Positions 1,402 to 17,145 of a stretch of 17,145 nucleotides of DNA are shown here, in pieces. The position numbers were made by a program, and so were the translations under genes. This stretch comes from a virus (taxonomy: Duplodnaviria; Heunggongvirae; Uroviricota; Caudoviricetes): IMG/VR virus record IMGVR_UViG_3300029843_000117; one strand, 5' to 3'. The notes under the pieces were generated by a model. The model did no database searches, was not told the origin of the DNA, and was given only the letters and a program-made list of their open reading frames with translations. The stretch's first letter is position 1. Every line of letters starts with the position of its first letter.

Positions 1402-3078
1402 CTAAGCAACATGTAGTTCATCGTTGGCGGAAGTGGCTGCTTTGCGCTCCTGCTCAATAGCTAGAGACTCTCTATATTCTTTCGCCTCTGCAAACATTGT
1501 CCAGTGGGCGTTGATGTTCATGTCTTCAATAACTGATTTGATTTCTTTTAAATTTACGTTAAAAAACTCTTTTCGTGAGTTAATTTTATTGACCTGCTTT
1601 TCGTTGAAAACTTTATGCAGATGGTTTTCTAATGATGGTGCATCATCACTATAAATCATCGCATGAACATCGAACGAAAAAGGAACACTAGCATCTCCGA
1701 GTTCACGAACACGATCAAGTGGTTCAAGGCGGCGTGTCATTCCAATTTTATATACATCTTCGCCAAATGAACCAATATTACTAATGATATAGACGTGGCC
1801 TGATCTGGTTTGTTGAGCCATAGAAATAGCTCGTTGATTTTTAGCTTCAGCTTCTTCATATTTTAACTGTAGTTCAGCTATTTTTTGCTCTAAAGCTAAG
1901 CGTTGTTCTTCATTTGCAAGCATAAGTTCTTTCGTTGCTTTATTTATAGCTTGCTGAATAGCTTTTTCTTCTTTTTCAGCTTCTTTTATCGCTTTTTCAT
2001 ATTCTCTACGAGCTCTTTCCTCTTCACGAAGCTGTTCTTTAATCCTTCTTTGCTCTTCTTTTTCTTCGAGCATAATTTCATTAACTGCTACACCCCATTT
2101 TAGCTCGTTGAGTCTTGCCTGAAGATAGATGTCACTTATTTTTGCGGACCTAAAGGCAGAGCCATTGTAATTTACTAGTTGAAATGCATCTTTTATTTCT
2201 TGGGAAAGTTTTCCAAAATTGTTGTGTTTGACTTTTGATAAAATACTGTCAACTCTTCCATTGAAGGCATCCAAAACAAAGTTTATGGCAGTATTACGCC
2301 TGTTTTGCTCAACATAATCACACGAAGCAGCTTTATTAGTTTTTATTAATGATTTGGTTAACTCTCTGGCTTTTTGTAATTCCTTGCCTGCATCTGTAAA
2401 TTCATAATTTTCTGCCAGCTCATCAAGTACACTACGGTTAGGGATGATCCATTCATCACCATAACCTTCAATTTTATTTTTCATTGATTTTGCAACTGCT
2501 TCATATTTTTCTGCAAACTCTTTAGCTTCATATGCTGAACCAGCAATCTCCTTTGCTCTTTCTTCTGCATCAGAAATAATTTTTACTGCATTGTCATTAG
2601 CATTTGAGATTAGCTCATTTGCTTTATTATTAGCATTATCAAGACGTTCTTTGGCTTTCAGGCGTGCATCGCGAGCGTCTTTGGTGATTGCTATAGCTTC
2701 GCTATTAGCGTTGCTTATTGTCATCTGAGCTTGATAATTTGCTTCGTTTACTGTTTTAGCCGCCTTAATTTGGGCTTCATCTATTTTTTGCTTGGCTATT
2801 GAGTCCGCATTTTTTATCTTATTCTCTGCATCCATTACTGCGCTGTGCAATTCTTCGTATTGCCACAATGGTGCTGCTCGCCCTTCAAGCTCTGATAATT
2901 CTCGTACGGTCTGTGCTAGTTTTTCTTGATTTTCAATCAGTTGGTTAGAAAGGGCTATGTTGTTAGCTGTCAGGTTATCTATAGCCGCTTTGTGTTTTTT
3001 ACTTTGTTTAAATAATATTACAGCTAGAACAGGGGCGAGAAATGCTAATAAGAGTATAACGATGGCAAATGAATTCAT
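1402..3078 (-). CDS. Cargo protein: N-terminal transmembrane helix, long coiled-coil region, C-terminal T5orf172/GIY-YIG-like domain (DUF4041-type architecture)
   Basis: 558-aa ORF. N-terminus is hydrophobic (FAIVILLLAFLAPVLAVILF). The middle is K/E/A-rich with heptad-like pattern. The C-terminus reads GHVYIISNIGSFGEDVYKIGMTRRLEPLDRVRELG..., resembling the T5orf172 (GIY-YIG-like) signature. Visibly AT-rich relative to neighbours. A plausible RBS (aaggat) lies upstream, and it ends 20 bp before the cI stop. Confidence 0.8.
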   Translation of the reverse strand: MNSFAIVILLLAFLAPVLAVILFKQSKKHKAAIDNLTANNIALSNQLIENQEKLAQTVRELSELEGRAAPLWQYEELHSAVMDAENKIKNADSIAKQKIDEAQIKAAKTVNEANYQAQMTISNANSEAIAITKDARDARLKAKERLDNANNKANELISNANDNAVKIISDAEERAKEIAGSAYEAKEFAEKYEAVAKSMKNKIEGYGDEWIIPNRSVLDELAENYEFTDAGKELQKARELTKSLIKTNKAASCDYVEQNRRNTAINFVLDAFNGRVDSILSKVKHNNFGKLSQEIKDAFQLVNYNGSAFRSAKISDIYLQARLNELKWGVAVNEIMLEEKEEQRRIKEQLREEERARREYEKAIKEAEKEEKAIQQAINKATKELMLANEEQRLALEQKIAELQLKYEEAEAKNQRAISMAQQTRSGHVYIISNIGSFGEDVYKIGMTRRLEPLDRVRELGDASVPFSFDVHAMIYSDDAPSLENHLHKVFNEKQVNKINSRKEFFNVNLKEIKSVIEDMNINAHWTMFAEAKEYRESLAIEQERKAATSANDELHVA

Positions 3079-3098
3079 TTTAAAATCCTTTTACTATA

Positions 3099-3695
3099 TT
3101 AATTCGAGACTATTGTACTTCTTATACAAGCAACCACTTCAATATCAGAAAATGCACATTCAAAGCTATTCTCTGCTGTTGTAATTTTAATCATTCCTTT
3201 AGGAAGCCTTGTGATTTTTCGAATGGAATAGGTTCCGTCGATATTGATTAACCAGTTTCCATCAAGTACTTCAGAAAATTTTTGATCACAAATGTATGTG
3301 ACGAGTCCATCCTGAACAACAATTGGTGATGAAAGGTTTGCAGGAAGAAATGATGAATCGAAGACATATGAACCGTCTTCAATCATTTTGCCTGCGGCAA
3401 GGCGAAACTTAACAAGCTCTTCTGTAGCTGCTGTCAGCGAGCTTTGCTTAAGGCCTTGTCCGGTAGTTAACCATTTGAGGGAGGTTCCTGTTTCAAGAGC
3501 ACATTGGATTATCCAGTCAGCAGGAAATGTATCCCGCAAATACCTGTTCGCTAGTGTGCTTTTTGATACTTCCAAGTGATCAGCTAAAGCCTGTCGTGTC
3601 GTAAAGCCATAGGCTTCGACTAATCGCTCAATCGCAGCCTTACCACCTTTATTGGGATTTATTTTGATCTCACTTGGGTACTTTGATGTTGACAT
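3099..3695 (-). CDS. cI: Phage 186 CI-like immunity repressor (N-terminal HTH, C-terminal oligomerisation domain)
   Basis: 198-aa ORF with an HTH-like N-terminus (GFTTRQALADHLEVSKSTLANRYL). Size and position (divergent from apl/cII, upstream of int) match 186 cI. Confidence 0.7.
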   Translation of the reverse strand: MSTSKYPSEIKINPNKGGKAAIERLVEAYGFTTRQALADHLEVSKSTLANRYLRDTFPADWIIQCALETGTSLKWLTTGQGLKQSSLTAATEELVKFRLAAGKMIEDGSYVFDSSFLPANLSSPIVVQDGLVTYICDQKFSEVLDGNWLINIDGTYSIRKITRLPKGMIKITTAENSFECAFSDIEVVACIRSTIVSN

Positions 3696-3717
3696 ATCTC
3701 TTTTGCGATCCTAGTAT
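3689..3717 (+). promoter_or_regulatory. Candidate sigma70 lytic promoter (pR-like): TTGACA, 17 bp spacer, TAGTAT
   Basis: -35 ttgaca at 3689-3694 (overlapping the cI start codon on the opposite strand) and -10 tagtat at 3712-3717, oriented toward apl/cII. Confidence 0.4.
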
Positions 3718-3724
3718 CAGTTTT

Positions 3725-3740
3725 GTACCCAATTGGGTAC
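3725..3740. promoter_or_regulatory. Perfect 16-bp palindrome GTACCCAATTGGGTAC; candidate repressor operator
   Basis: Lies immediately downstream of the putative pR -10. A half-site-like ttgggtac recurs at 3674-3681. Confidence 0.45.
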
Positions 3741-3790
3741 TTGTCACGATTACTACAGGCTCACCACAAGCCAATAGGAGATGTTGCATC

Positions 3791-4012
3791 ATGACCCCTA
3801 ACATTTCAATAACTCTGAATACGCCACACGTCACAATCGAGCGTTATAGCGAACTTACTGGTCTTTCAATCGACACAATCAACGATATGTTGGCGGATGG
3901 TCGCATTCCTCGGCATCGTCTTCGTAAAGACAAGAAAAGAGAAAAGGTAATGATCAACCTTGCTGCTCTTACCGTTGATGCACTTACTGATTGCAATGTT
4001 GTATTCAACTAG
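3791..4012 (+). CDS. apl: Apl/Cox-like excisionase and transcriptional regulator
   Basis: 73-aa ORF from an internal ATG, with RBS aggag at 3776-3780. It is the first gene of the rightward operon opposite cI. The ORF-track start at 3674 would overlap cI and is unlikely. Confidence 0.6.
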
Positions 4013-4044
4013 TTCCATTTTGGGATACATCAGAGGTGTCGACC

Positions 4045-4554
4045 ATGTTTGATTACCAAGTTTCCAAACATCCACATTTTGATGAAGCCTGTCGTGCATT
4101 CGCACTGCGCCACAATCTGGTGCAACTGGCAGAACGTGCGGGCATGAATGTGCAGATTCTGCGGAACAAGCTGAACCCAGCTCAACCTCATTTATTAACC
4201 GCACCAGAAATCTGGCTGCTTACCGATCTGACTGAAGATTCAACGTTGGTAGATGGTTTTCTGGCACAGATTCATTGTCTGCCATGTGTACCGATTAATG
4301 AGGTAGCAAAAGAGAAACTGCCGCATTACGTCATGAGCGCAACTGCAGAGATCGGGCGTGTTGCAGCAGGTGCGGTATCTGGTGATGTAAAAACTAGTGC
4401 CGGTCGTCGTGATGCTATCAGCAGCATTAACTCTGTAACACGACTGATGGCTCTGGCTGCTGTTTCATTGCAAGCCCGTTTACAGGCTAATCCTGCGATG
4501 GCGAGTGCAGTTGATACCATGACTGGCCTTGGTGCTTCATTCGGTTTGCTGTGA
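4045..4554 (+). CDS. cII: CII-like lysogeny establishment regulator
   Basis: 169-aa ORF starting [24 protein letters not shown], with RBS agaggtg at 4031-4037. Size and position match 186 CII. Confidence 0.6.
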
Positions 4555-4561
4555 GGTGTTT

Positions 4562-4858
4562 ATGCTGACGAAAGAACCATCATTTGCATCGCTGCTGGTA
4601 AAACAAAGCCCGGCAATGCACTACGGTCACGGCTGGATCACGGGTGAGGATGGAAAACGCTGGCATCCATGTCATTCACAAGATGAATTGCTGTCTGAAT
4701 TGACCACGAGGAAACGGAGAAAGTCCAAATGTATGCGGCAGAAAGTGAAGTGGTTTATCAGTTTCGTTACAGAGGGGAGAGTTATTCAGTACCTGAAGGT
4801 GATTTGCTCTGTTGCTATCCGTCATTGTCGGGCGATGGCAGTTACTTTTTCACGTTAA
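4562..4858 (+). CDS. Hypothetical early protein (3' extent uncertain)
   Basis: ATG with RBS gaggtg at 4553-4558. The N-terminal part looks protein-like, but the last ~40 codons overlap the next ORF and look like out-of-frame read-through. Confidence 0.35.
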   Translation: MLTKEPSFASLLVKQSPAMHYGHGWITGEDGKRWHPCHSQDELLSELTTRKRRKSKCMRQKVKWFISFVTEGRVIQYLKVICSVAIRHCRAMAVTFSR

Positions 4859-4953
4859 AGGATGGGACGTTTTTACGGGGAGAGCAGGTTAAAGAGACGA
4901 TACGAAAAAATGTATCTCCTCTTGAGCGTTACCGTAAGAACAAAGAACGATAG
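4729..4953 (+). CDS. Hypothetical early protein
   Basis: 74-aa ORF, RBS ggag about 10 nt upstream, balanced composition. Overlaps the previous ORF by 130 nt. Confidence 0.45.
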   Translation: MYAAESEVVYQFRYRGESYSVPEGDLLCCYPSLSGDGSYFFTLKDGTFLRGEQVKETIRKNVSPLERYRKNKER

Positions 4954-4975
4954 CTGCGTTTGGGGGATATGAAGT

Positions 4976-5317
4976 ATGGCAATTAATGGCGCTGCAGCAA
5001 CTGTTCCATTAAGCCCCGGTGAACGCCTGAATGGACTTAATCACATTGCGGAGTTAAGGGCGAAAGTTTTTGGCCTGAATATTGAGTCAGAGCTTGAGCG
5101 GTTTATTAAAGATATGCGTGATCCACGGGATATCAATAATGAACAAAATAAACGGGCACTGGCTGCCATATTCTTTATGGCAAAAATTCCAGCTGAACGT
5201 CATAGCATCAGCATTAATGAGCTGACCACTGACGAAAAGCGGGAGCTGATTAAAGCAATGAATCATTTTCGTGCAGTGGTGAGCTTATTTCCCAGACGGC
5301 TAACCATGCCGAATTAA
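4976..5317 (+). CDS. Hypothetical early protein
   Basis: 113-aa ORF with RBS ggggga 8 nt upstream, in the same orientation as the early operon. Confidence 0.55.
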   Translation: MAINGAAATVPLSPGERLNGLNHIAELRAKVFGLNIESELERFIKDMRDPRDINNEQNKRALAAIFFMAKIPAERHSISINELTTDEKRELIKAMNHFRAVVSLFPRRLTMPN

Positions 5318-5384
5318 CCAACTAATGAAATTAATGGCGTAAACCCGCCGGGCATCCCTTTATCTAAATTCAGGAGAATTGATT

Positions 5385-5618
5385 ATGCGTAATATTGAAA
5401 CCCTCACGACTAAAACCGGACCGGATGACGCAGGGCTTAATATTTTACTGACAGAGGCTCGTCTGGAAGAACGCCGGGCAAGGGCTGAAGCAATGGCTGC
5501 TCGCCTTGATAGCCTGGCGTGTCATATCTCATCCCGCCAGCTAAACCACGTGGAAGCGGCAGAACTGCTGCGCGTGACTGCTGAAGCAATCCAGAACGAA
5601 GCGCAGGAGATCCACTAA
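5385..5618 (+). CDS. Hypothetical early protein
   Basis: 77-aa ORF from ATG at 5385, with RBS caggag at 5371-5376. Its stop overlaps the next start (ATAATG). Confidence 0.55.
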   Translation: MRNIETLTTKTGPDDAGLNILLTEARLEERRARAEAMAARLDSLACHISSRQLNHVEAAELLRVTAEAIQNEAQEIH

Positions 5619-5845
5619 TGGCTGATGCAATGGATCTCGTACAGCAGCGCGTTGAAGAAGAACGCCAGCGCCATATCCGTGCAGCCCGTGCCAAATCACC
5701 GGGCGTGTCACGCGTACTTTGCATTGAATGTGAAGCGCCAATTCCGCCAGCACGACGCCGCGCCATTCCGGGAGTGCAGCTTTGCATTACCTGTCAGGAA
5801 ATCGCAGAACTGAAAGGCAAACATTACAACGGAGGTGCTGTATGA
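5618..5845 (+). CDS. TraR/DksA-family C4-type zinc-finger protein
   Basis: 75 aa with CIECEAP..(17)..CITCQ, a CxxC-N17-CxxC arrangement typical of phage and plasmid TraR-like proteins. Translationally coupled to its neighbours. Confidence 0.75.
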   Translation: MADAMDLVQQRVEEERQRHIRAARAKSPGVSRVLCIECEAPIPPARRRAIPGVQLCITCQEIAELKGKHYNGGAV

Positions 5846-6699
5846 GCACCATCCTGAAATGGGCGGGAAATAAAACCGCCATTATGCCAGAACTGAAAAA
5901 ATACCTTCCTGCTGGCCCGCGACTGGTTGAACCTTTCGCGGGTTCCTGTGCTGTGATGATGGAAACGGATTATCCCAGCTATCTGGTTGCGGATATTAAT
6001 CCTGATTTAATCAACCTCTATAAAAAGGTTGCCGCTGATTGTGAATCGTTTATATCTCGCGCCAGAGTTTTATTTGAGATCGCAAACAGGGAGGTGGCTT
6101 ATTACAACATAAGGCAGGAGTTTAACTGCTCAACTGAAATTACTGATTTCATGAAAGCGGTATATTTCCTGTATCTCAATCGTCACGGTTACCGTGGTTT
6201 ATGTCGCTATAACAAGAGCGGGCATTTCAACATTCCCTACGGTAATTATAAAAATCCGTATTTCCCTGAAAAAGAACTTCGCACATTTGCAGAAAAAGCC
6301 CAGCGAGCAACGTTTATCTGCGCCAGCTTTGATGAAACGCTGGCGATGTTGAAGGCGGGAGATGTGGTGTATTGCGATCCGCCATATGACGGTACGTTTT
6401 CCGGCTATCACACTGATGGTTTCACTGAAGATGACCAGTATCACCTGGCATCCGTTCTTGAACATCGGTCATCAGAAGGACATCCGGTCATTGTTTCTAA
6501 CAGTGACACATCCCTGATCCGTTCGCTGTATCGCAATTTTACTCACCACTATATCAAGGTAAAACGCAGCATCGGTGTGGCAGCTGGCGAGGGTAAATCA
6601 GCAACAGAAATCATTGCTGTTTCCGGGCCGCGCTGCTGGATGGGATTTGATTATTCGCGTGGCGTGGATAGTTCTGCCGTGTACGGAGTACGTGCATGA
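5842..6699 (+). CDS. dam: DNA adenine methyltransferase (Dam-like, N6-adenine)
   Basis: 285 aa from ATG 5842, with RBS ggaggtg at 5831-5837. Contains the SAM-binding motif ILKWAGNK near the N-terminus and the catalytic DPPY motif ([10 protein letters not shown]). Confidence 0.85.
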
Positions 6700-9136
6700 G
6701 TCATGCCGATATGAACAACTGCTGCGGCTTTAACGAGGCTGCCGCAGCATTCTCATGGAACAGCCCGAAAAAGGCCATTAACCCTTATCTGGACCCGGCG
6801 GAAGTTGCGCCGGTTTCTACGCTTTCAAACCTGATCACTCTGTACGCTGCCGATAACGAGCAGGAACAGTTGCGCCGCGAGGCACTGAGTGATCAGGTCT
6901 GGGAGCGTTATTTCTTTAATGAATCACGTGATCCTGTCCAGCGCGAAATGGAGCAGGATAAGCTCATTAGCCGGGCAAAGCTGGCGCATGAGCAGCAGCG
7001 TTTTAATTCAGACATGGTCATTCTGGCGGACGTCAACGCCCAGCCTTCCCATATCAGCAAGCCGCTGATGCAACGTATTGAATACTTCAGCAGCCTGGGC
7101 AGGCCAAAGGCTTATTCCCGCTATTTACGTGAGACGATTAAGCCATGTCTGGAACGACTGGAGCATGTACGCGACAGTCAGCTATCTGCATCTTTTCGCT
7201 TTATGGCAAGCCATGAAGGGCTGGACGGCCTGCTGATCCTGCCTGAAATGAGTCAGGATCAGGTGAAACGCCTGTCCACCTTGGTAGCTGCGCATATGAG
7301 TATGTGCCTTGATGCAGCTTGTGGTGATTTGTATGCCACCGATGACGTTAAGCCAGAAGAAATCCGCAAGACATGGGAAAAGGTGGCAGCGGAAACCCTG
7401 CGTCTGGATGTCATCCCACCTGCGTTTGAGCAACTCCGTCGGAAAAGAAACCGCCGTAAACCCGTGCCGTATGAACTCATTCCGGGTTCGCTGGCGCGTA
7501 TGTTGTGCGCCGACTGGTGGTATCGGAAATTATGGAAGATGCGTTGCGAATGGCGGGAAGAGCAGTTGCGCGCTGTTTGCCTGGTCAGCAAAAAAGCATC
7601 TCCTTATGTCAGCTATGAAGCCGTGATGCATAAACGTGAGCAGCGCCGTAAGTCGCTGGAGTTTTTCCGTTCTCATGAACTGGTGAACGAAGACGGCGAC
7701 ACGCTGGACATGGAGGATGTGGTAAACGCCAGCAGCAGCAACCCTGCGCATCGCCGCAATGAGATGATGGCCTGTGTTAAAGGTCTGGAGCTTATCGCGG
7801 AAATGCGCGGTGACTGCGCCGTTTTCTACACTATCACCTGTCCGTCGCGTTTCCATTCCACGCTAAATAACGGCAGACCAAACCCGACCTGGACAAACGC
7901 GACGGTAAGACAAAGCAGCGATTATCTGGTCGGCATGTTTGCTGCATTTCGTAAGGCGATGCACAAAGCCGGGTTGCGCTGGTATGGCGTGCGGGTGGCT
8001 GAGCCGCATCATGATGGCACAGTTCACTGGCACCTGTTGTGTTTCATGCGCAAAAAAGACCGCCGTGCCATCACTGCATTACTGCGTAAGTTTGCCATCC
8101 GTGAAGACCGCGAGGAGCTGGGCAATAACACTGGGCCGCGCTTTAAGTCTGAGTTGATTAACCCGCGCAAAGGAACGCCGACAAGCTACATCGCGAAATA
8201 TATCAGTAAGAACATTGACGGTCGTGGTCTGGCTGGCGAGATCAGCAAGGAAACGGGTAAATCTCTGCGTGATAACGCTGAATACGTGAATGCCTGGGCG
8301 TCTCTGCATCGTGTTCAGCAATTCCGCTTCTTTGGTATTCCGGGGCGTCAGGCTTACCGTGAACTTCGCTTGCTGGCTGGTCAGGCGGCAAGGCAACAGG
8401 GTGACAAAAAAGCAGGTGCGCCGGTACTGGATAACCCGCGTCTTGATGCCATTCTGGCTGCTGCTGATGCTGGTTGTTTTGCCACCTACATCATGAAGCA
8501 GGGCGGCGTACTGGTTCCCCGTAAATATCACCTCATCAGAACCGCTTATGAAATCAACGAAGAGCCGACCGCCTATGGCGATCACGGCATTCGTATTTAT
8601 GGCATCTGGTCACCCATTGCAGAGGGCAAGATCTGCACTCATGCAGTGAAGTGGAAAATGGTTCGTAAAGCCGTTGACGTTCAGGAGGCGGCAGCCGACC
8701 AGGGCGCTTGCGCCCCTTGGACTCGTGGCAATAACTGTCCCCTTGGACTCGTGGCAATAACTGTCCCCTTGCTGAAAATTTGTACCAACAAGGGAAAGAC
8801 AAATCAGCTGATGGGGATACCAGAACGGATATCACCCGCATGGATGACAAGGAATTGCACGATTACCTGCACAGTATGAACAAAAAAGAGCGTCGGGAAC
8901 TGGCTGCAAGGTTACGCCTGGTGAAACCGAAACGGCGTAGAGACTACAAACAGCGAATTACAGATCATCAGCGACAGCAGCTCGTCTATGAACTGAAGTC
9001 CAGAGGATTTGATGGCAGCGAGAAAGAGGTCGATTTACTCCTTCGCGGCGGCAGCATTCCGTCAGGAGCAGGCCTGCGTATTTTCTATCGGAACCAGCGT
9101 TTGCAGGAAGATGATAAGTGGCGGAACCTGTATTAA
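6696..9136 (+). pseudogene. A: Replication initiation endonuclease A (P2 gpA-like, HUH rolling-circle initiator), frameshifted by a 26-bp tandem duplication
   Basis: The frame-0 ORF 6696-8879 (727 aa) carries the HUH-like motif TVHWHLLCF and the tyrosine motif YIAKYISK. Downstream, ORF 8780-9136 in frame 2 continues the protein exactly if one 26-bp repeat copy (8739-8764) is removed, which would give a continuous ORF of about 804 aa. Confidence 0.75.
8713..8771. repeat. Tandem direct repeat: 26-mer ccccttggactcgtggcaataactgt, two full copies plus a partial 7 bp
   Basis: 8713-8738 and 8739-8764 are identical base for base, and 8765-8771 repeats the first 7 bp. 26 is not a multiple of 3, so the duplication shifts the A reading frame. 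Confidence 0.9.
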
Positions 9137-9289: not shown

Positions 9290-9478
9290 ATGCAGGACTA
9301 TTTTTTGGAGTCTTTGAAGCTCCAGCGCATTGATTTTTTTCTTAAGCTTGTAGCGGCTAGTGAGTGTAGTGATGAAGAGAAGGGGCTGGCCCTGCAGTGG
9401 GTTTCTGAACTGACAGATGAACTCATGGCAAAAATCAGAACCCACGAATACAACCGCTCAATGGATGTCATCAGCTGA
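9290..9478 (+). CDS. Small hypothetical protein, first gene of a putative SOS-inducible operon (Tum-like region)
   Basis: 62 aa from ATG 9290, with RBS aggagga at 9280-9286, downstream of the LexA box. Confidence 0.5.
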   Translation: MQDYFLESLKLQRIDFFLKLVAASECSDEEKGLALQWVSELTDELMAKIRTHEYNRSMDVIS

Positions 9479-9488
9479 GGTGACTTTT

Positions 9489-9722
9489 ATGCGCATTGAA
9501 ATAATGATCGATAAAGAGCAGAAGATTAGCCAGTCTACCCTGGACGCCCTTGAATCCGAGCTTTACCGCAATCTGCGCCCCCTGTATCCCAAAACGGTAA
9601 TTCGCATTCGCAAAGGTAGCTCTAACGGTGTGGAACTGACCGGACTGCAACTGGACGAAGAAAGGAAGCAAGTGATGAAAATTATGCAGAAGGTGTGGGA
9701 AGACGACAGCTGGCTGCATTAA
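9489..9722 (+). CDS. DinI-family protein (DinI/Tum C-terminal-like)
   Basis: 77 aa: MRIEIMIDKEQ..LDALESELYRNL..YPKTVIRIRKG...KQVMKIMQKVWEDDSW. Resembles E. coli DinI as recalled (MRIEV..IDALAGEL...WESADDW). RBS gaggtg at 9477-9482. Confidence 0.7.
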   Translation: MRIEIMIDKEQKISQSTLDALESELYRNLRPLYPKTVIRIRKGSSNGVELTGLQLDEERKQVMKIMQKVWEDDSWLH

Positions 9723-9752
9723 GAAACGTTGCCCCCAAGAGGATTCATTCTG

Positions 9753-9923
9753 ATGGGGGACTATTTTGGGCAACGAGTGAAACGAGGCGTTAGGTGGACG
9801 GCCATTTTGATAAGTGATCGTCCGCTTTTTGTTCTGAGTTCAAGCGATGGATTTAACACACTGGTTGAAGCAGAAGTATCTAAGTTCAATTTATATTATT
9901 TGAAGGGCACTGGTCTGATGTAG
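9753..9923 (+). CDS. Small hypothetical ORF
   Basis: 56 aa from an internal ATG with RBS aagagga at 9737-9743. No recognisable motif. Confidence 0.25.
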   Translation: MGDYFGQRVKRGVRWTAILISDRPLFVLSSSDGFNTLVEAEVSKFNLYYLKGTGLM

Positions 9924-10009
9924 TACGATTTTTGCCGGAGATGGCATGTTCTATATTGATCTCATCCATATAATGATTGGTATTATTAGCTTAGTTTAAA
10001 GAGGATTGA

Positions 10010-11587
10010 ATGGATATCAACTATGTTGTTTCAAAAATGGGGTTCGTAGATGATCTTATTAATGCAGGTTCATTTGATTCTGCCTATAAAAATGTAAAGG
10101 ATATTCTTAACGGTATCGATGAGATAAATACAATCAAAGAAAATAGAATAATTATATTATCTAATTTGGCCGGAAATCTTATTGATATCGGAAGTTTTAG
10201 TAATGTAAAAAATATAGCGGAGGAAGGCTTAAATATCTTTATAAACAATAAAAATGAATTTCTGACTATAATGAAAGAATCCTTATATTACTATAACTTG
10301 GCAAATGGAATGAGCGCAGTTCTTGATTTTAATCCTAATGACAATGCAGATATTGATAGTTTCATTAAGCTGAATGATGTAAAAAATAATTACTGGAAAG
10401 CGTTTAAACTTTCACAAGAAGATGGATGGGTGCCCCCTGATTTAATAGTTAATCTAGCTAATGTATTAAAAAAACAATATCGTATATCTGAATCAATGGA
10501 TTATTATGAACAAGCAATATCTATTGATAACTCAATTCCTCAGGCGTGGGTAAACAGATCTGAGGCATTAGAATTGCTTAATGAATTATCTACAACATAT
10601 ACATATAAAATGATTAAAGAAGTTATTCGAGGTTATGAGTGTGCAATAAAGTCAGGGAAATGTTTTCCTTCATGGAAGGTTGCTCTTCAAAGAAAAATAA
10701 AGTACAACGAAAGTATATTGAGTGAATCATGTGTATATGGCATAGAGGATATAAGTACAGATGAAAGGCTCACGCAGGAGGAGTATGATACTTTATCAAA
10801 CTACCAGAGGTTTTGTATAGATAATAATCTAATGTTGTCTGATCATTCGCTATATTGCAATTGTTATGCGTCATCTAAAGATAATATAACTATTGCTACC
10901 ACCGAGGAAGGTGTGTTTGGTGATTTTATAGTGCCAATGGAAATGGTGTTAAATAGACTTAAAGCTGAGTATTCCTTAGCACGAAAAATGTTTTTTGAAT
11001 ATAAGGTTGATAGTGAGTTTTTTGATGAGGATTCGGAGGTATGTTATTCTGAATTGTATAATGGAGAAATATTGTATGAAAATGTTGAGAAGTTAAGGGT
11101 TGCATTTAGAGCTTGCTTTGGTATCTTGGATAAAATAGCAGTTGCTCTGTGTCAATTATTTGATTTAAAACCAGATAGAGGACATATATACTTTCATAAC
11201 TTCTGGCGGATTAGTGATGAAAAAAGAAAGCTTAAAATAAACAAAATAAATAATAAAGGATTGCTGGGTTTGTTTAGTATTGCTATGGATTTGAATGATA
11301 AAAATGGTGAGCTTGCTTTTTTTAAAGAATGGAGGAATGATTTAGAACATAAACTGTTAGTTATTCACGAGAAAGACATGTTAGTTGATTTATATAATTC
11401 TTATGGGTTTTTTGATGAGGTGAGGTTTATTGAGAAAGAAAAGTTTGAGAAACAGCTCTTACAACTCATGAAAATTGTGAGATCAGCCGTTATTCTTTTT
11501 GTGTTTACCATACGTATAGAGGGGAAAAAAAGTATTCCTAAAGATATGTTGACCATTAAAAATACCATCGAGAGAAAAGTATTGTAG
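10010..11587 (+). CDS. Cargo protein with TPR-like N-terminal region and C-terminal HEPN-like domain (Rx4H motif); candidate abortive-infection or defence RNase
   Basis: 525-aa ORF, strongly AT-rich. RBS gagg at 10001-10004. TPR-like segment SMDYYEQAISIDNSIPQAWVNRSEALELLNE. C-terminal FFKEWRNDLEHKLLVIHEKD contains R-x4-H, the HEPN signature. A perfect -10 TATAAT lies at 9969-9974. Confidence 0.8.
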   Translation: MDINYVVSKMGFVDDLINAGSFDSAYKNVKDILNGIDEINTIKENRIIILSNLAGNLIDIGSFSNVKNIAEEGLNIFINNKNEFLTIMKESLYYYNLANGMSAVLDFNPNDNADIDSFIKLNDVKNNYWKAFKLSQEDGWVPPDLIVNLANVLKKQYRISESMDYYEQAISIDNSIPQAWVNRSEALELLNELSTTYTYKMIKEVIRGYECAIKSGKCFPSWKVALQRKIKYNESILSESCVYGIEDISTDERLTQEEYDTLSNYQRFCIDNNLMLSDHSLYCNCYASSKDNITIATTEEGVFGDFIVPMEMVLNRLKAEYSLARKMFFEYKVDSEFFDEDSEVCYSELYNGEILYENVEKLRVAFRACFGILDKIAVALCQLFDLKPDRGHIYFHNFWRISDEKRKLKINKINNKGLLGLFSIAMDLNDKNGELAFFKEWRNDLEHKLLVIHEKDMLVDLYNSYGFFDEVRFIEKEKFEKQLLQLMKIVRSAVILFVFTIRIEGKKSIPKDMLTIKNTIERKVL

Positions 11588-11909
11588 TATATTTTCATCG
11601 AGCGATGAAACGGTCTGTTTTTCTTTATAGTTTTGTCATAAAAAAGAGATTTCCTGCTTAAAATTTGGCTATTACAGAGCAACTATGTATGTTCCTCGCT
11701 CACAGTAGAGCTTCATCTTTGTAAGTCTGTATGTTTCGTTTTTCAAGTGGTCATTCAGATACGGACTTTCACTTCTCTTAGACAGTGCATGACTATGCTG
11801 CATGAAATCGCATGATCGTTTAAGGATCGTTTTTGCTAAGGCTCGCCAGAACTAGCGGGCTTTTACGTAGAACATGCAGGTGCATGAAAACCACTACATA
11901 AAGCGGGCA

Positions 11910-11928
11910 GGCGTGGCGGGGATACGAG
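11910..11928. other. Candidate cos site (cohesive-end sequence) of the P2/186 type
   Basis: ggcgtggcggggatacgag begins with GGCGTGGCGGGGA, matching my recollection of the 186/P2 19-nt cohesive end (GGCG[A/T]GGCGGGGAAAGCA.). The location between the accessory region and the 3' end of Q matches the P2 map. Confidence 0.5.
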
Positions 11929-12133
11929 CGCGCACTCTGGGGTAAAATGGTCAAAATCCACCGCAATTTACTGGCTCGGGAACGTAGTTAGTTTTGTAGG
12001 TATAAACGGCTCTCACGTTAGATAGGCATGCAGGATGTGTTAAATCGTTGTGATGAAGTTAACGGTGACTGAGACAGTTTAGGTCTAAGATATAACTTCT
12101 GGGTTAGTTAAAAATTGGAATAGTAAGACATTT

Positions 12134-12430
12134 ATGAAAACTACTTATAGCTATGATTTTCAATATATGCGCAAAGGTCAGGATCGCCCTGATGATGATG
12201 GAGAGGTTGTAGGGTGTAATTCAGAAGACAACTCGCTTTTGATGCTTCCAAATGTGGGAGACTACGTAACAATTACGAATAAGGGTGGGCGTGCTCAATT
12301 TGATGGGCGGGTGAAAACAAGGCTTTTCAATTACCTACGCATTGCTGATGGTCATGTTCATTGCTCCATTTGCATTGTAGTTGAGGAAGTTGATATGGAC
12401 TCCGTATGGGGGGCACTAATTAAAGAATAA
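12134..12430 (+). CDS. Hypothetical 98-aa protein between cos and Q
   Basis: ORF with a weak RBS and no recognisable motif (contains HCSIC). It occupies a space that is short and non-coding in P2 as I recall it. Confidence 0.4.
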   Translation: MKTTYSYDFQYMRKGQDRPDDDGEVVGCNSEDNSLLMLPNVGDYVTITNKGGRAQFDGRVKTRLFNYLRIADGHVHCSICIVVEEVDMDSVWGALIKE

Positions 12431-12460
12431 TAGAATGCCTGCAAATGCAGGCGCTTTAAT

Positions 12461-13501
12461 TTACTCAGAAATATCTAAGTTGTAAGATTCAAAGCAAATC
12501 ACTTTTTCACCTAGCCAGTTGTTCAGCTCTTGCAGCCGCTTTTGCAGTGGCATCAGTTCATTGCGGACAAACACTCGACTAGCCTTCTCCACATCCCCAA
12601 ACCCCCCGACATTATTAGGCATTATCCCCATCATTTGTGGCGGCACACGATGCGCCGCCATCATGTCGTCCCGGCTCACGTTCTTGATATTCAGGAACTC
12701 ATCCTTCGCCGCCACTTCTGACAACGGGATAATCTGAAGCCCGTCCTTTTTACCGTTAGGCGAGTACATAAACAGGTTACGGAAGTTACCAGGACCTTTG
12801 GCGCTTTTCATCGCATTGCGGAGGTTGTTCACATCCTCCTGGTTCTGCGCAGCATCGGTCATGTACATGATGAAGCCTGCATGACTGCCGTTAATGTAAT
12901 ACTTGCGGCGGAACAGCGTGGCGGACTCGTTGAGCAGAGCTGACGGAATGGCAGAAAGATAACCGGGCAGGCCGTAGATCTCCTGGTTAATGTCCGGTTC
13001 CATTAGATGAAAAATGCTGCCTTTCGTGAACTGATACGGCTGGGTTGTCATACCGTATTGCACAAACCAGTAGGTATCCAGGTCTAACCCGCGTCGGGTG
13101 TATTTTGCCAGTGCAGGCTCAAGGGCGATAACTTCACCGAAGCGGTTCGTGCGTTTCTCCAGGTAGGCGTTACCAAAAACCAGATAGTCCTGCACAAAAC
13201 GCGAAAAAGCCTGCTGGCTGAGCAGCGGGTGAGGGATGTAGGTGCTGGTCAGAATGTTGCACTTCACTGCAATCGGTGAGCTGTGATGCACGGCGGCGCG
13301 GAAGGTTCGCGCCAGTCCGTCGAAACTCACAGGCGGCTCATACCAACGATCCATCTGTACGCATTCCACATAGTCCAGCAGTTCGCGGCGGTCCAGAACA
13401 GGAACGGGATCACCGAAGCTGAATGCTTCGGCTGAAGTCTGGCTTTTATGCTGGATCTGTTTCGTCGACGCAGCGCGGTTCTTCTTACTCTTTCCCATCA
13501 A
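12461..13501 (-). CDS. Q: Portal vertex protein (P2 gpQ-like)
   Basis: 346 aa (P2 Q is about 344 aa as recalled). Leftward orientation and a 4-bp overlap with the upstream terminase gene match the P2 QP operon. Confidence 0.85.
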   Translation of the reverse strand: MMGKSKKNRAASTKQIQHKSQTSAEAFSFGDPVPVLDRRELLDYVECVQMDRWYEPPVSFDGLARTFRAAVHHSSPIAVKCNILTSTYIPHPLLSQQAFSRFVQDYLVFGNAYLEKRTNRFGEVIALEPALAKYTRRGLDLDTYWFVQYGMTTQPYQFTKGSIFHLMEPDINQEIYGLPGYLSAIPSALLNESATLFRRKYYINGSHAGFIMYMTDAAQNQEDVNNLRNAMKSAKGPGNFRNLFMYSPNGKKDGLQIIPLSEVAAKDEFLNIKNVSRDDMMAAHRVPPQMMGIMPNNVGGFGDVEKASRVFVRNELMPLQKRLQELNNWLGEKVICFESYNLDISE

Positions 13502-15264
13502 AAAATCTCCACAATATTGCTGGTATTGGCGGACTCGCCCTGCAGCGGTTCGTTAAACAGTGCGTGCATTGTTGCCCAGGCCAGATCGGCATGGCTGGCT
13601 TCTTCGCTGCGGCTGGCTTCATAGGTCGGGCGGTTGCCACTGGCAGTGGTAGCGCGACGGATTGCCATAAATGACTGCGCAATGTCGGTGTGCCCGGCGT
13701 CAAACTCCAGACGGCGGTGGCTGATAATGTCGTAGGCCTTGAGTACCAGGGCGTTTTTAACGTTGGGGTTGTAGACAAACTCCCTGACGGCAGGAAAAAA
13801 CGCTTTCACGTTCTCGTAAACCCCGTGACCGACGCCGGTCGAGTCGATGCCGATATAGGTCACGTTGTACTGTTCGGTCAGTTTTTTGATGGCGTCAGCC
13901 TGGGCGCGGAAGTCCATCCCGCGCCACTGGTGACGCTCAAGAATGCGGAACTTACCACCCGGCACGGCTGGCGGAGCCACCACCACGCATCCGGCACTAT
14001 CGCCGTTCTGCGTACCTTTTGCCGGGTCATAACCGATCCACACCTCGCGCCAGCCAAACGGGCGCAGCGCCAGTGCATGAAAGTCGGTCCAGACTTCCCA
14101 GCTGTCCACCATGCACGCCTGCAGCTCGCTGAGCGGAAACACGGACGCGAGATCGTCCACAAACTCGCACATCAGCAGGTTCTGGTATTCGTCCGGGCTG
14201 TACTCCATGCGCAACTGGTCAAGGTCGAACAGGTTACAGCCGCCGCGCACCGCATCTTCCACGGTGACTATCTGGCGGTATTGCCCGTCTGCGCACAGCA
14301 GGCCGGGGGCCAGATTGCTGTGGGACAGGTCGATGTCCACCTTATCGGCTTTGTTGCGCCCACGGTTGAACAGCGCACCGGACCAGAACGGATAAGCACT
14401 GTGTGTCAGACTGGATGGCGTGGAAAAATAGGTTTGTCGCCATTTTTTGTGAATAGCCATACCGGAAGCCACTTTGCGCAGCTCCTGGAATTTCGGTATC
14501 CAGAAATATTCATCCAGATACAGGTTGCCGTGGTAACTCTGGGCCGTGCGGGCATTGGTGCCGAGGAAGTAAAGCGTGGCCCCGTTAGGAAGCACCATCG
14601 GATCGCCTTTCAGCTCCACCTCCACTTCTTTGGCAAAGTCGATGATGTACTGTTTAAAGACGTGAGCCTGAGCCTTGCTGGCAGAAAGGAAAATCTGGTT
14701 ACGCCCGGTCAGCAGGGCGTCAATCAGGGCTTCACGGGCAAAGTAAAAGGTCGCGCCGATCTGGCGAGACTTCAGCAGGTTGCGGATGCGATTGGTTTTT
14801 CCGGCTTCCCACCAGTGGCGCTGGTAGTTGAACATGGAGGAATGGAAGATTTCTTCCAGCTTCTCAATCTGTTCATCGGTGAAAACATTCTTTTCCGGCT
14901 GACGGCGCGGGCCTTTGTTGCGGTTGGCGACGTTAGGGTTTAAGTCGGCTTCGTTGCCGCCATTGTTAAACTTGCCGATGCGCGCGTGGCGCTCCGACTG
15001 GCGCGCCAGCAGGTCAATCTCTTTGAAATCTTTCCCTTCTTTGTGCTCCTTCATAATGAGCTGGCAGTAGCGTGCGGCGGTGGTGAGCTGCATCTGATCC
15101 AGCGGCCCATAGTCACCCCACTTGTCGCGTTTTTTCCAGCTATGAACGGTTGCAACTTTCTCGCCCAGCATTTCAGCAATGCGGGCGACGCGGTATCCCT
15201 GAAAGTACAGCAGCATGGCCTGCCGACGGGGATCGAGATCTGCGGGTGTCAGTGTGGTGTTCAT
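13498..15264 (-). CDS. P: Terminase large (ATPase) subunit (P2 gpP-like)
   Basis: 588 aa (P2 P is about 590 aa as recalled). Divergent from O across a 142-bp intergenic region, as in P2. Confidence 0.85.
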   Translation of the reverse strand: MNTTLTPADLDPRRQAMLLYFQGYRVARIAEMLGEKVATVHSWKKRDKWGDYGPLDQMQLTTAARYCQLIMKEHKEGKDFKEIDLLARQSERHARIGKFNNGGNEADLNPNVANRNKGPRRQPEKNVFTDEQIEKLEEIFHSSMFNYQRHWWEAGKTNRIRNLLKSRQIGATFYFAREALIDALLTGRNQIFLSASKAQAHVFKQYIIDFAKEVEVELKGDPMVLPNGATLYFLGTNARTAQSYHGNLYLDEYFWIPKFQELRKVASGMAIHKKWRQTYFSTPSSLTHSAYPFWSGALFNRGRNKADKVDIDLSHSNLAPGLLCADGQYRQIVTVEDAVRGGCNLFDLDQLRMEYSPDEYQNLLMCEFVDDLASVFPLSELQACMVDSWEVWTDFHALALRPFGWREVWIGYDPAKGTQNGDSAGCVVVAPPAVPGGKFRILERHQWRGMDFRAQADAIKKLTEQYNVTYIGIDSTGVGHGVYENVKAFFPAVREFVYNPNVKNALVLKAYDIISHRRLEFDAGHTDIAQSFMAIRRATTASGNRPTYEASRSEEASHADLAWATMHALFNEPLQGESANTSNIVEIF

Positions 15265-15406: not shown

Positions 15407-16174
15407 ATGACAGTGAAAGCAAAGCGTTTTCGCATCGGGGTGGAAGGTGCCACCACCGATGGACGCGAAATCCAGCGTGAATGGCTGGAACAGATGGCAG
15501 CCAGCTACAACCCGGCGGTGTATACCGCGCTGATTAACCTTGAGCACATCAAGTCTTATCTGCCGGACAGCACCTTTAACCGCTACGGCAAGGTGACGGC
15601 GCTGTTTGCTGAAGAAATTACGGAAGGTCCGCTGGCAGGCAAGATGGCATTGTATGCCGACGTTGAGCCAACGGAGTCCCTGGTGGAACTGGTGAAAAAA
15701 GGCCAGAAATTATTCACCTCTATGGAAGTCAGCCCGAAGTTTGCTGATACGGGCAAAGCCTACCTGGTCGGCCTGGCTGCCACTGATGATCCAGCCAGTC
15801 TGGGTACGGAAATGCTGACATTCAGCGCCAGTGCAGCCCATAACCCGCTGGCAAACCGCAAGCAGAATCCTGCCAATCTCTTTACCGCTGCAGAGGAAAC
15901 GGTGATCGAACTGGAAGAAGTCCAGGATGACAAACCGTCCCTGTTTGCCCGCGTCACGGCGTTGTTTACCAAAAAAGAGCAGTCCGATGACGCCCGGTTC
16001 GCTGATGTGCATAAGGCCGTGGAGCTGGTCGCCACTGAGCAGCAGAACCTGAGCGCACGCACCGAAAAATCCCTGTCTGAGCAGGAAGAACGCCTGTCTG
16101 AACTGGAGACTGCTCTGCAGGAGCAGCAATCTGTTATTCATCCGGCAGGGGCAGGGCAAAAGCGCCACTGGTAA
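15407..16174 (+). CDS. O: Capsid scaffolding protein (P2 gpO-like), probably 3'-truncated
   Basis: 255 aa. The N-terminus MTVKAKRFRIGVEGATTDGR resembles P2 gpO (..KFFRIGVEGDTCDGR as recalled). P2 gpO is about 284 aa, and this ORF ends abruptly (..HPAGAGQKRHW*) just before a D-like fragment. Confidence 0.7.
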   Translation: MTVKAKRFRIGVEGATTDGREIQREWLEQMAASYNPAVYTALINLEHIKSYLPDSTFNRYGKVTALFAEEITEGPLAGKMALYADVEPTESLVELVKKGQKLFTSMEVSPKFADTGKAYLVGLAATDDPASLGTEMLTFSASAAHNPLANRKQNPANLFTAAEETVIELEEVQDDKPSLFARVTALFTKKEQSDDARFADVHKAVELVATEQQNLSARTEKSLSEQEERLSELETALQEQQSVIHPAGAGQKRHW

Positions 16175-16184
16175 ACCACTGCCG

Positions 16185-16679
16185 GTGATCACTATCACAC
16201 GGAAGGACGGCGACAGTCACCGCTTTACCCTGGCAGATCGCGGAGCCTACACGGGCGTAATTGCCAGCTGGTTGCATACCCGCGAACCCGCGAAGAAAGA
16301 AAGCACCACGGTGAAGCGTAAGCGCAGGACTAAGAAGCAGAAGAAAGAGCCGGAAGCGAAGCAGGGCGATTACCTGGTGGGGACGGATGAAAACGTGCTG
16401 GTACTTAATCGCACTTATGCCAACCGGAGCAACGCCGAACGAGCGGCGAAAATGCAGTGGGAACGCCTGCAACGCGGTGTTGCGTCATTCTCGCTACAAC
16501 TGGCGGAAGGTCGGGCAGATCTCTACACGGATATGCCTGTGAAGGTCAGTGGCTTTAAACAGCCGATAGATGATGCGGAATGGACCATTACCACCCTGAC
16601 ACATACTGTCAGCCCGGATAATGGTTTTACGACCAGTCTGGAGCTTGAAGTGAGGATTGATGATTTCGAAATGGAATGA
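16185..16679 (+). pseudogene. D: C-terminal fragment of tail protein D (P2 gpD / late control D family)
   Basis: 164-aa ORF immediately upstream of ogr, as D is in P2. It has no proper start context (GTG at 16185, upstream frame open but unrelated). Several kb of structural genes expected between O and D are absent. Confidence 0.55.
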
Positions 16680-16769
16680 TTCTTCGCAATGGAGAACTTT
16701 TAAGTTTGCAAAATGGAATAATGCGGTATCATTATTGTGAATTTAGCAAAAATGGGGAGAACTCGAAAA

Positions 16770-16988
16770 ATGATGATTTGCCCACTGTGTGGAAGTGCCG
16801 CCCATACTCGCAGCAGTTTTCAGGTATCTTCATTGACCAAAGAGCGTTACAACCAGTGCCAGAACATTAACTGCAGCCATACTTTTGTTACCCATGAAAC
16901 TTTTGTTCGTTCGATTGCAACGCCAAAAGAGTCAAATCCGGTTCAGCCGCATCCAATGAAATCAGGACAGGTGGCGCTCTCTCTTTGA
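16770..16988 (+). CDS. ogr: Late gene transcriptional activator Ogr (zinc-finger)
   Basis: 72 aa from ATG 16770, with RBS ggggaga at 16754-16760. MMICPLCGSAAHTRSS..KERYNQCQNINCSHTF..PHPMKSGQ resembles P2 Ogr (MFHCPLCQHAAHARTS..KERYHQCQNVNCSATF..PHPLPSGQ as recalled). Confidence 0.85.
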   Translation: MMICPLCGSAAHTRSSFQVSSLTKERYNQCQNINCSHTFVTHETFVRSIATPKESNPVQPHPMKSGQVALSL

Positions 16989-17065
16989 CTCTGCCGCCAT
17001 TTTGTCGCCATCGTTAAAAAACAGTGTTTCTAACATCATGATTTTAAACAGCTTAAATTTCAGGC

Positions 17066-17079
17066 AACAAAAAACCCAT
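17066..17079. repeat. Right copy of the 14-bp direct repeat; candidate attR core
   Basis: aacaaaaaacccat is identical to 179-192 and overlaps the 3' terminator of the sRNA at 17069-17145. Confidence 0.6.
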
Positions 17080-17145
17080 CAACCTTGAACCGAAATGGCG
17101 GGGTTGATGGGCTCCACAAAATGGGGACATCAAAGAAAAGCAGTG
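17069..17145 (-). ncRNA. rybB: RybB small RNA (sigmaE-dependent Hfq-binding sRNA); its first ~2 nt lie beyond the window
   Basis: The minus strand reads cactgcttttctttgatgtccccattttgtggagcccatcaaccccgccatttcggttcaaggttgatgggtttttt, matching RybB as I recall it (GCCACUGCUUUUCUUUGAUGUCCCCA...GGUUGAUGGGUUUUUU). It ends in an intrinsic terminator hairpin (cccatcaacc / ggttgatggg) plus a U6 tract. Confidence 0.8.

Follow-up and report, generated by a model that had tools for sequence, protein, structure and literature searches.

The 17,145-nucleotide stretch of viral DNA in IMG/VR record IMGVR_UViG_3300029843_000117 (hereafter the window) covers two-thirds of a 186/P2-like prophage, its left part, and between its replication genes and a cos-like site it carries an intact gene for a 525-amino-acid protein that joins an N-terminal TPR solenoid to a C-terminal HEPN domain of the LA2681 family. 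We regard this TPR–HEPN gene as a strong candidate for a single-gene anti-phage or abortive-infection effector, which we consider the right strength of claim, the anti-phage activity being what we infer from its architecture and genomic contexts. Its domain and motif make it very probable that the protein is an active HEPN-type RNase, and we assign a probability of about 0.6 to its being an anti-phage or conflict effector that works, roughly by the mechanism proposed below, as an autoinhibited sensor–effector RNase. The features of the gene, its product and its immediate surroundings are as follows (window coordinates).

10010–11587, plus strand: TPR–HEPN coding sequence, ATG start, 525 amino acids, product identical to WP_000354145.1
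10010–10729, plus strand: predicted TPR solenoid of 12 helices (residues 1–240 of the predicted structure), putative sensor
10844–10882, plus strand: motif H279-x3-C283-x-C285-x5-D291, just upstream of the Pfam HEPN boundary
10928–11530, plus strand: HEPN domain (residues 307–507)
11333–11350, plus strand: R442-N-D-L-E-H447 (Rx4H), the predicted catalytic motif, which ends HEPN helix 3
9929–11715, plus strand: mobile cassette (BLAST boundaries), comprising 81 bp of upstream DNA, the gene and 128 bp of downstream DNA
9969–9974, plus strand: −10 hexamer TATAAT of a candidate own promoter
10000–10005, plus strand: Shine–Dalgarno-like AGAGGA, 4 nucleotides before the ATG and kept in the cross-species alignment

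A preliminary description of this DNA, drawn from the sequence alone, had read the gene as a compositionally foreign, AT-rich insertion in the slot where P2 carries tin and old, encoding an N-terminal TPR-like region and a C-terminal R-x4-H motif (WRNDLEHK), and the profile, structure and locus comparisons reported here uphold each of these readings. The G+C content over the gene is 0.29–0.33 (10001–11500), against 0.52–0.54 in the replication gene gpA and 0.52–0.59 in the portal and terminase genes, and the gene lies after gpA and a DinI-like gene and before the cos-like site and the portal gene. The limits proposed for it, 9924–11587, held in part: the length of 525 codons plus a stop was right, but the ATG is at 10010, and position 9924 is the first base past the stop codon of an upstream small open reading frame, which leaves 9924–10009 as 5′ untranslated or promoter DNA.

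The HEPN assignment is carried by a strong match to Pfam PF18733 (HEPN_LA2681, "LA2681-like HEPN") at residues 309–504 (E = 1.8e-38, 132.4 bits against a cut-off of 27), which spans profile positions 9–204 of 204. An AlphaFold2 model of the whole protein (pLDDT 88.2, pTM 0.90) consists of the TPR solenoid and a four-helix HEPN bundle, with helices at residues 307–334, 357–384, 437–447 and 476–507, an insert at 395–429 and a β-hairpin at 449–475. The HEPN superfamily is defined by four long helices with an insert separating the second from the third, an Rx4–6H motif ending helix 3, a polar residue after the arginine and an acidic residue in helix 2 (PMC3710099); the topology and motif placement of the protein fit this definition, including N443 directly after R442. 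The octapeptide WRNDLEHK occupies residues 441–448 (nucleotides 11330–11353), and R442, N443, E446 and H447 never vary among 62 full-length homologs (38–84% identity). In a wider set of 119 sequences (the query and, down to 27% identity, one representative for each of 118 clusters formed at 50% identity) the same four residues are kept in 106–113, the arginine in 113 and the histidine in 111; eight sequences lack the arginine or the histidine, six of them being truncated at that region. Helix 2 contributes the acidic residues E360 and D374, the latter invariant in 119 of 119. Structural comparison of the HEPN domain returned 4nqf (score 8.6), the sacsin HEPN domain (8.1), YutE (7.8), LsoA (7.4), Csm6 (7.1) and RnlA (7.0), with generic helix bundles interspersed at similar scores, and a Foldseek search gave no significant match, the best being once more a HepT toxin (E = 0.32).

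Anantharaman et al. 2013 (PMC3710099) list the LA2681 family, which is defined by computation only and has no solved structure, as "Fused to TPR" with its motif conserved. The window protein shows the family's profile match, its Rx4H motif with the polar asparagine, its four-helix bundle and its TPR fusion, and is by sequence a correctly annotated family member that has already been catalogued and is a candidate defense gene. The conservation of the motif also bears on the idea that the protein lacks catalysis and serves as a scaffold, with the TPRs as adaptor and the HEPN domain confined to ligand binding, in the manner of nucleotidyltransferase-associated HEPN domains. Catalysis has indeed been lost in some HEPN families (PMC3710099), but those families lost Rx4–6H, which is retained here with all four of its conserved residues, and we give this explanation hardly any weight.

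The TPR half is less apparent from the single sequence, whose Pfam TPR matches fall below threshold (E ~1e-3, residues 145–174); a profile built from the 62 homologs matches solved TPR proteins at 1.5e-19, in agreement with the 12-helix solenoid of the model. A search of the PDB with this family profile returned TPR proteins only and no solved LA2681 HEPN domain. Homologs are less alike in the TPR half than in the HEPN half (32% against 50% identity for distant ones, 71.5% against 85% for close ones) and, given this faster divergence than that of the catalytic half, we read the TPR half as the putative sensor. Pfam detected no NTPase domain, such as the central P-loop STAND domain of the Avs and bNACHT receptors, and the model contains TPR and HEPN elements only. 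The H-x3-C-x-C-x5-D motif upstream of the HEPN boundary is as conserved as Rx4H, being invariant in the 62 homologs and present in 116–117 of the 119 sequences, and could be a metal-binding knuckle or an additional active-site element.

The gene moves as a one-gene unit. Four Yersinia loci outside P2-like prophages (L002–L005) match the window at 85.6% DNA identity over 9929–11715 and nowhere else in BLAST comparisons, and in P2-like backbones whose cargo differs, homology to the window breaks off at 9732 or 9851 and returns at 11690 or 11784, in the cos region. These boundaries delimit a cassette of a single gene with flanks of 81 bp and 128 bp, and no neighboring gene is conserved across its contexts, so the proposal of a single-gene system stands. 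The preliminary description also speculated that a small open reading frame at 9753–9923 (or from 9729 with a TTG start) might encode a partner or antitoxin, which would make the locus a two-gene toxin–antitoxin pair. The frame is on the gene's strand and stops 86 bp short of it; a 56-amino-acid product is reported for the frame by some automatic gene callers but not by others, and RefSeq leaves it without annotation. The cassette, however, starts past the frame, whose bases 9733–9851 also occur in a P2-like backbone with different cargo. The Salmonella, Yersinia and all distant homolog loci lack the frame, and its product has no match in Pfam, PADLOC, NCBIfam or PHROGs. Given these observations we do not consider the small frame a partner, and a toxin–antitoxin pair of this composition is very improbable.

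The cassette probably brings its own upstream signals, although the evidence differs from that first put forward. The preliminary description pointed to a near-consensus −10, and TATAAT is indeed present at 9969–9974; as a hexamer it is not above chance, since the window holds 7 copies where 9.07 are expected. A promoter scan found no acceptable −35 for this site, which is missing from the scan's list because its −35 is poor, and a TG extension is absent. Better evidence for a candidate own promoter than the hexamer itself is that conservation of the upstream 80 bp, including CATATAATGAT, extends across the copies in E. coli, Yersinia and Salmonella, whose surroundings are unrelated. We claim no terminator, because the hairpin past the stop codon does not exceed shuffled sequence in stability (z = −0.27).

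The position of the gene within the prophage supports a defensive role. The interval from the replication endonuclease to the portal gene was described as a hotspot by Rousset et al. 2022 and Vassallo et al. 2022 and holds tin/old and many validated systems. Among 5426 complete E. coli genomes the cassette occurs in 11, always at at least 99.5% identity and always in the slot from DinI to cos, and the flanking backbone is found in ~1280 of the same genomes; the exact protein is indexed in 1049 blocks of a large assembly collection. The gene directly follows DinI in a P2-like prophage in 8 of the 8 places examined (a further locus, L001, is one more variant), and plasmids carry only distant relatives, at 24–27% identity. 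The DinI-to-cos slot carries differing cargo in related prophages. A second variable slot extends from the cos-like site to the portal gene (11938–12460) and holds, in the window, a 98-amino-acid open reading frame (phrog_12676). Beside an identical HEPN gene this second slot may instead hold STM3845 with a reverse transcriptase, a 585-amino-acid reverse transcriptase, an insertion sequence with GmrSD, an AIPR protein, a 554-amino-acid protein or three hypothetical genes. The gene thus resides in a defense hotspot, and several homologs have defense and mobile-element genes as neighbors.

The same surroundings could belong to a selfish or phage-serving toxin that would benefit the prophage and not protect the host from unrelated phages, for example by shutting off the host on induction, by forming an addiction-like module that punishes loss of the prophage or by interfering with P4-type satellites. 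The gene does lie downstream of the early replication operon and is read in the same direction, and in related phages the slot holds outright toxins. Such a toxin is nonetheless a quite unlikely explanation of the gene: no antitoxin or immunity partner is co-inherited with it, it has stayed intact although its prophage has lost the ability to form particles, and its promoter-like region travels with it into non-phage contexts. As to the cargo of this slot more generally, other RNA-targeting or toxin genes occupy it in other P2-like phages (L011, 2381–3518; L012, 2433–3584): an RNase A-like protein is encoded there with a contact-dependent inhibition (CDI) immunity gene in several E. coli genomes, and phage vB_EcoM-813R9 has a Ymh-family HEPN protein.

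A search with the HEPN half against 1.84 billion representatives yielded homologs in 840 clusters (50% identity), and most of the 150 best cluster representatives are 500–550 amino acids long with the HEPN domain at about residues 250–520. They range over Gamma- and Betaproteobacteria, Campylobacterota, Desulfobacterota, Bacteroidota, Ignavibacteria, Chlorobiota and others. Across 60 loci, in which neighbors were called with a simple greedy open reading frame caller, no conserved neighbor is universal, and the neighbors that recur are specific to clades of a rough neighbor-joining tree. Three settings can be distinguished. In the first, to which the window copy belongs as part of a separate clade, the gene stands alone on mobile or variable DNA: a Cellvibrio mobile element has a relaxase, AbiE, Fic, HigBA and ArdA nearby, a Vibrio homolog adjoins Mrr and a Cap4 nuclease, a Yersinia island includes AlpA, a primase-like gene and AbiEii, and further copies lie in a Salmonella lambdoid prophage and in Pseudomonas and Pantoea islands with integrases. 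The 146 nearest neighbors at 49 further loci include scattered BREX, type I restriction–modification, SoFic, MADS, Olokun and AbiTii matches and six integrases, with ordinary housekeeping genes among them.

In the second setting, an Enterobacterales clade (43–47% identical) is encoded directly downstream of a 1356-amino-acid protein whose annotation gives a NACHT domain (PF28130/DUF8371), with a gap of 13 bp in Pectobacterium. The NACHT-type NTPase has no PADLOC match, and the literature search on DUF8371 gave nothing beyond the 2013 HEPN survey. The same NTPase is followed by a Tle1-like hydrolase in Bradyrhizobium, in place of the HEPN protein, and by nothing in Acidisoma. A NACHT gene with an exchangeable downstream gene is, judged by gene order, the effector-swapping pattern of modular immune systems, and NACHT–HEPN has the appearance of a modular system of two genes, so far undescribed, whose effectors can be swapped. 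The intervals concerned, in three loci with this NTPase (PF28130/DUF8371), are as follows.

L025, 1897–5973
L082, 2201–7894
L080, 5001–10570

In the third setting, at ten Moraxellaceae-type loci in Psychrobacter and Acinetobacter, the gene sits between rtcB (PF01139, 2e-131) and rtcA (PF01137, 3e-70) on one strand, with rtcR divergent (PADLOC RtcR model, 7e-225). The RtcB proteins are 73–99% identical across the two genera, from which we take the arrangement to be old. A related association is seen in Chitinophagaceae (L060, 621–3651), in which the HEPN gene adjoins an RtcB paralog. The homologs at all of these loci are full-length (36–41% identical) and keep RNxLEH. The Moraxellaceae-type loci, and the gene positions in one of them, are these.

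rtc loci: L039–L046, L049 and L065
L042: rtcR 2690–4435, minus strand; rtcB 4675–5907; HEPN gene 6001–7566; rtcA 7656–8759

The rtc linkage is noteworthy given the chemistry involved. RtcB joins RNA ends that carry a 2′,3′-cyclic phosphate (or 3′-phosphate) and a 5′-OH. Metal-independent HEPN RNases yield 2′,3′-cyclic phosphate and 5′-OH ends (PMC3710099). Since the rtcB and rtcA enzymes act on RNA ends of the HEPN type, their linkage lends independent support to an active RNase domain. On the same linkage stands the main alternative to an immune function, namely that the protein is a nuclease of an RNA-damage or RNA-repair pathway whose prophage copy would benefit the lysogen through stress tolerance. 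The long retention of the gene in the ten rtc loci and its place beside the Chitinophagaceae paralog speak for this alternative. The linkage also fits a conflict, however, with repair countering a toxic RNase, and the window copy has no rtc gene nearby, belongs to its own clade that travels alone on mobile elements, and occupies a hotspot dominated by defense cargo, while the NACHT pairing and effector swapping of the sister clade point to immunity. We therefore consider a dedicated repair nuclease unlikely.

A further reading, which we advance tentatively as a possible but doubtful one, is that TPR–HEPN(LA2681) proteins are widespread, previously unrecognized single-gene immune RNases whose cuts are deliberately repairable. 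Their cyclic-phosphate products would serve both as the RtcR signal and as the RtcB substrate, such that the cell could arrest its translation when infected and its RNA be re-ligated afterwards; the nuclease would have been wired into the rtcBA operon in Moraxellaceae and would serve as a plug-in effector for a NACHT sensor in Enterobacterales.

For the window protein itself we favor a sensor–effector immune function because of its hotspot slot, the defense genes near several of its homologs and the NACHT pairing with effector exchange. We hypothesize that a lysogen makes the TPR–HEPN protein and holds it inactive, that the TPR solenoid would bind a phage-derived protein or peptide or respond to an infection-induced state, and that this binding would release or dimerize the C-terminal HEPN domain; by analogy with other HEPN RNases, activation probably involves dimerization. 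The Rx4H site may then cut cellular or phage RNA, or both (tRNA, rRNA or mRNA), in a metal-independent manner that would leave 2′,3′-cyclic phosphate and 5′-OH ends, and translation would halt and the superinfecting phage fail, which would amount to abortive infection or growth arrest. The DefensePredictor tables place an E. coli LA2681 protein among predicted novel defense genes, not among validated systems. The fold and motif on which this function would depend are present and conserved, and we found no characterized non-defense function for the family.

Several observations weigh against an anti-phage function. In the literature searched, the protein appears only in a catalog (Table S5A of Rousset et al. 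2022) and its family only in one prediction list. No PADLOC system-level, NCBIfam or PHROGs match was obtained for the protein; PADLOC-DB v2.0.0, in a copy that dates from 2023, gave only a generic TPR match (3.5e-4) besides a Csx1/Csm6 match (0.074). A tblastn search of 50,697 deposited phage genomes found no copy of the gene. Many distant homologs are surrounded by ordinary housekeeping genes, and the rtc-operon clade shows that the LA2681 family is not exclusively found on mobile elements. Lastly, the nearest namesake, the "HEPN-TPR" construct pFR83 of Rousset et al. 2022, is listed there only under additional tested, not validated, systems. That construct resembles the window gene in being a single gene for HEPN and TPR regions in a P2/P4 hotspot, but it encodes an unrelated protein with the HEPN domain first, the opposite order, and comes from the P4 satellite hotspot. 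We rejected an identity of the window protein with pFR83 and with the "Putative HEPN" construct pFR103, both of which are different proteins; Table S5 of the same study has WP_000354145.1 in P2 hotspot arrangements and not among the tested constructs. For LA2681 members as a whole, the literature searched yielded nothing beyond the 2013 HEPN survey, and no published test of biochemistry or phenotype for any member.

The closest functional parallels are found among other HEPN-based and repeat-based systems, although identity with ApeA, Abi-type HEPN proteins, PrrC/RloC, RnlA, Csm6/Csx1 or Avs/NLR proteins was rejected in each case, given that defining partners are absent and the corresponding models do not match. 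ApeA (Gao_Ape) and the Abi HEPN proteins of lactococci (AbiD/F/J/U2/V, as well as AbiA's C-terminal domain) are likewise single polypeptides with an N-terminal non-catalytic domain and a C-terminal Rx4–6H motif, and they are effectors of abortive infection or anti-phage defense; they differ in HEPN family and in N-terminal domain, and their PADLOC models gave no match. PrrC/RloC and RnlA/LsoA are, as proposed here, latent HEPN RNases switched on by phage infection. Their cyclic-phosphate products are a substrate for RNA repair, by T4 Pnk/Rnl in the case of PrrC, which parallels the rtcB–rtcA linkage of LA2681 relatives, but PrrC and RloC have an ABC ATPase regulatory domain and a restriction-system partner, whereas the window protein has TPRs and no partner. 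RnlA and LsoA need a separate antitoxin, whereas the window gene has no adjacent co-inherited one: a partner of the HEPN–MNT, RnlAB or LsoAB type was not found, and no neighbor is conserved across the contexts of the gene. Avs proteins, bacterial NLRs and the NTPase-less Dsr1 also fuse a helical-repeat sensor to a toxic effector, and repeat sensors of phage structural proteins exist with and without a STAND NTPase (PMC13581612). In comparison with Avs and NLR proteins, the window protein has no NTPase, and its TPR region is short (~240 residues) and N-terminal; the sister clade has a separate NACHT gene. Csm6 and Csx1 are distinguished by a CARF domain and an association with cas genes. No CARF match was obtained for the window protein, its PADLOC Csx1/Csm6 match is non-significant and covers the HEPN part only, and no cas genes are present within the window.

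If validated, the gene would be a compact 1.8-kb one-gene anti-phage system missed by current PADLOC models and would provide the first function for the LA2681 family, which comprises several hundred sequence clusters over many bacterial phyla. If it is not defensive, it is ordinary prophage cargo with a correct automatic annotation. Specialists would find the gene on its own unsurprising; concrete testable leads come from its NACHT and rtc linkages, and the three settings make it possible to test what the TPR region senses, whether RtcB repairs HEPN damage and whether a NACHT protein drives a separate RNase effector.

The remaining features of the window are as follows.

1–162: rcdA, 3′ end
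267–1319, minus strand: integrase
1402–3078, minus strand: PD-Lambda-1-like gene
3099–3695, minus strand: CI repressor
Between the CI repressor and the Dam methylase, in this order: CII, DUF5347 and a TraR/DksA zinc-finger protein
5782–6699: Dam methylase
6696–8879: replication protein gpA
9417–9722: DinI-like gene
11910–11927: cos-like site GGCGTGGCGGGGATACGA
12134–12430, plus strand: 98-amino-acid open reading frame
12461–13501, minus strand: portal
13498–15264, minus strand: terminase
16185–16679: gpD, C-terminal part only
16737–16988: ogr
17066–17144: chromosomal small RNA RybB (105 bits)

The cos-like site differs at three positions from what we take to be the P2/186 cos core. It lies within a block (11784–11936) that is conserved among P2-like phages with different cargo and divides the two cargo slots. 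The prophage is defective, as its end (15407–17144) shows: the match to intact relatives stops at 16129, inside the gpO scaffold gene, and the capsid, lysis and tail genes have been deleted, with the cargo genes left intact. A second AT-rich cargo gene (G+C ~0.35), the PD-Lambda-1-like gene between integrase and CI repressor, encodes a 558-amino-acid protein that matches PADLOC PD-Lambda-1 (6.6e-120) and has DUF4041/SNIPE and T5orf172/MUG113 domains. Because related prophages carry only a 63-amino-acid gene at this position, we interpret the integrase–CI site as a further variable defense slot.

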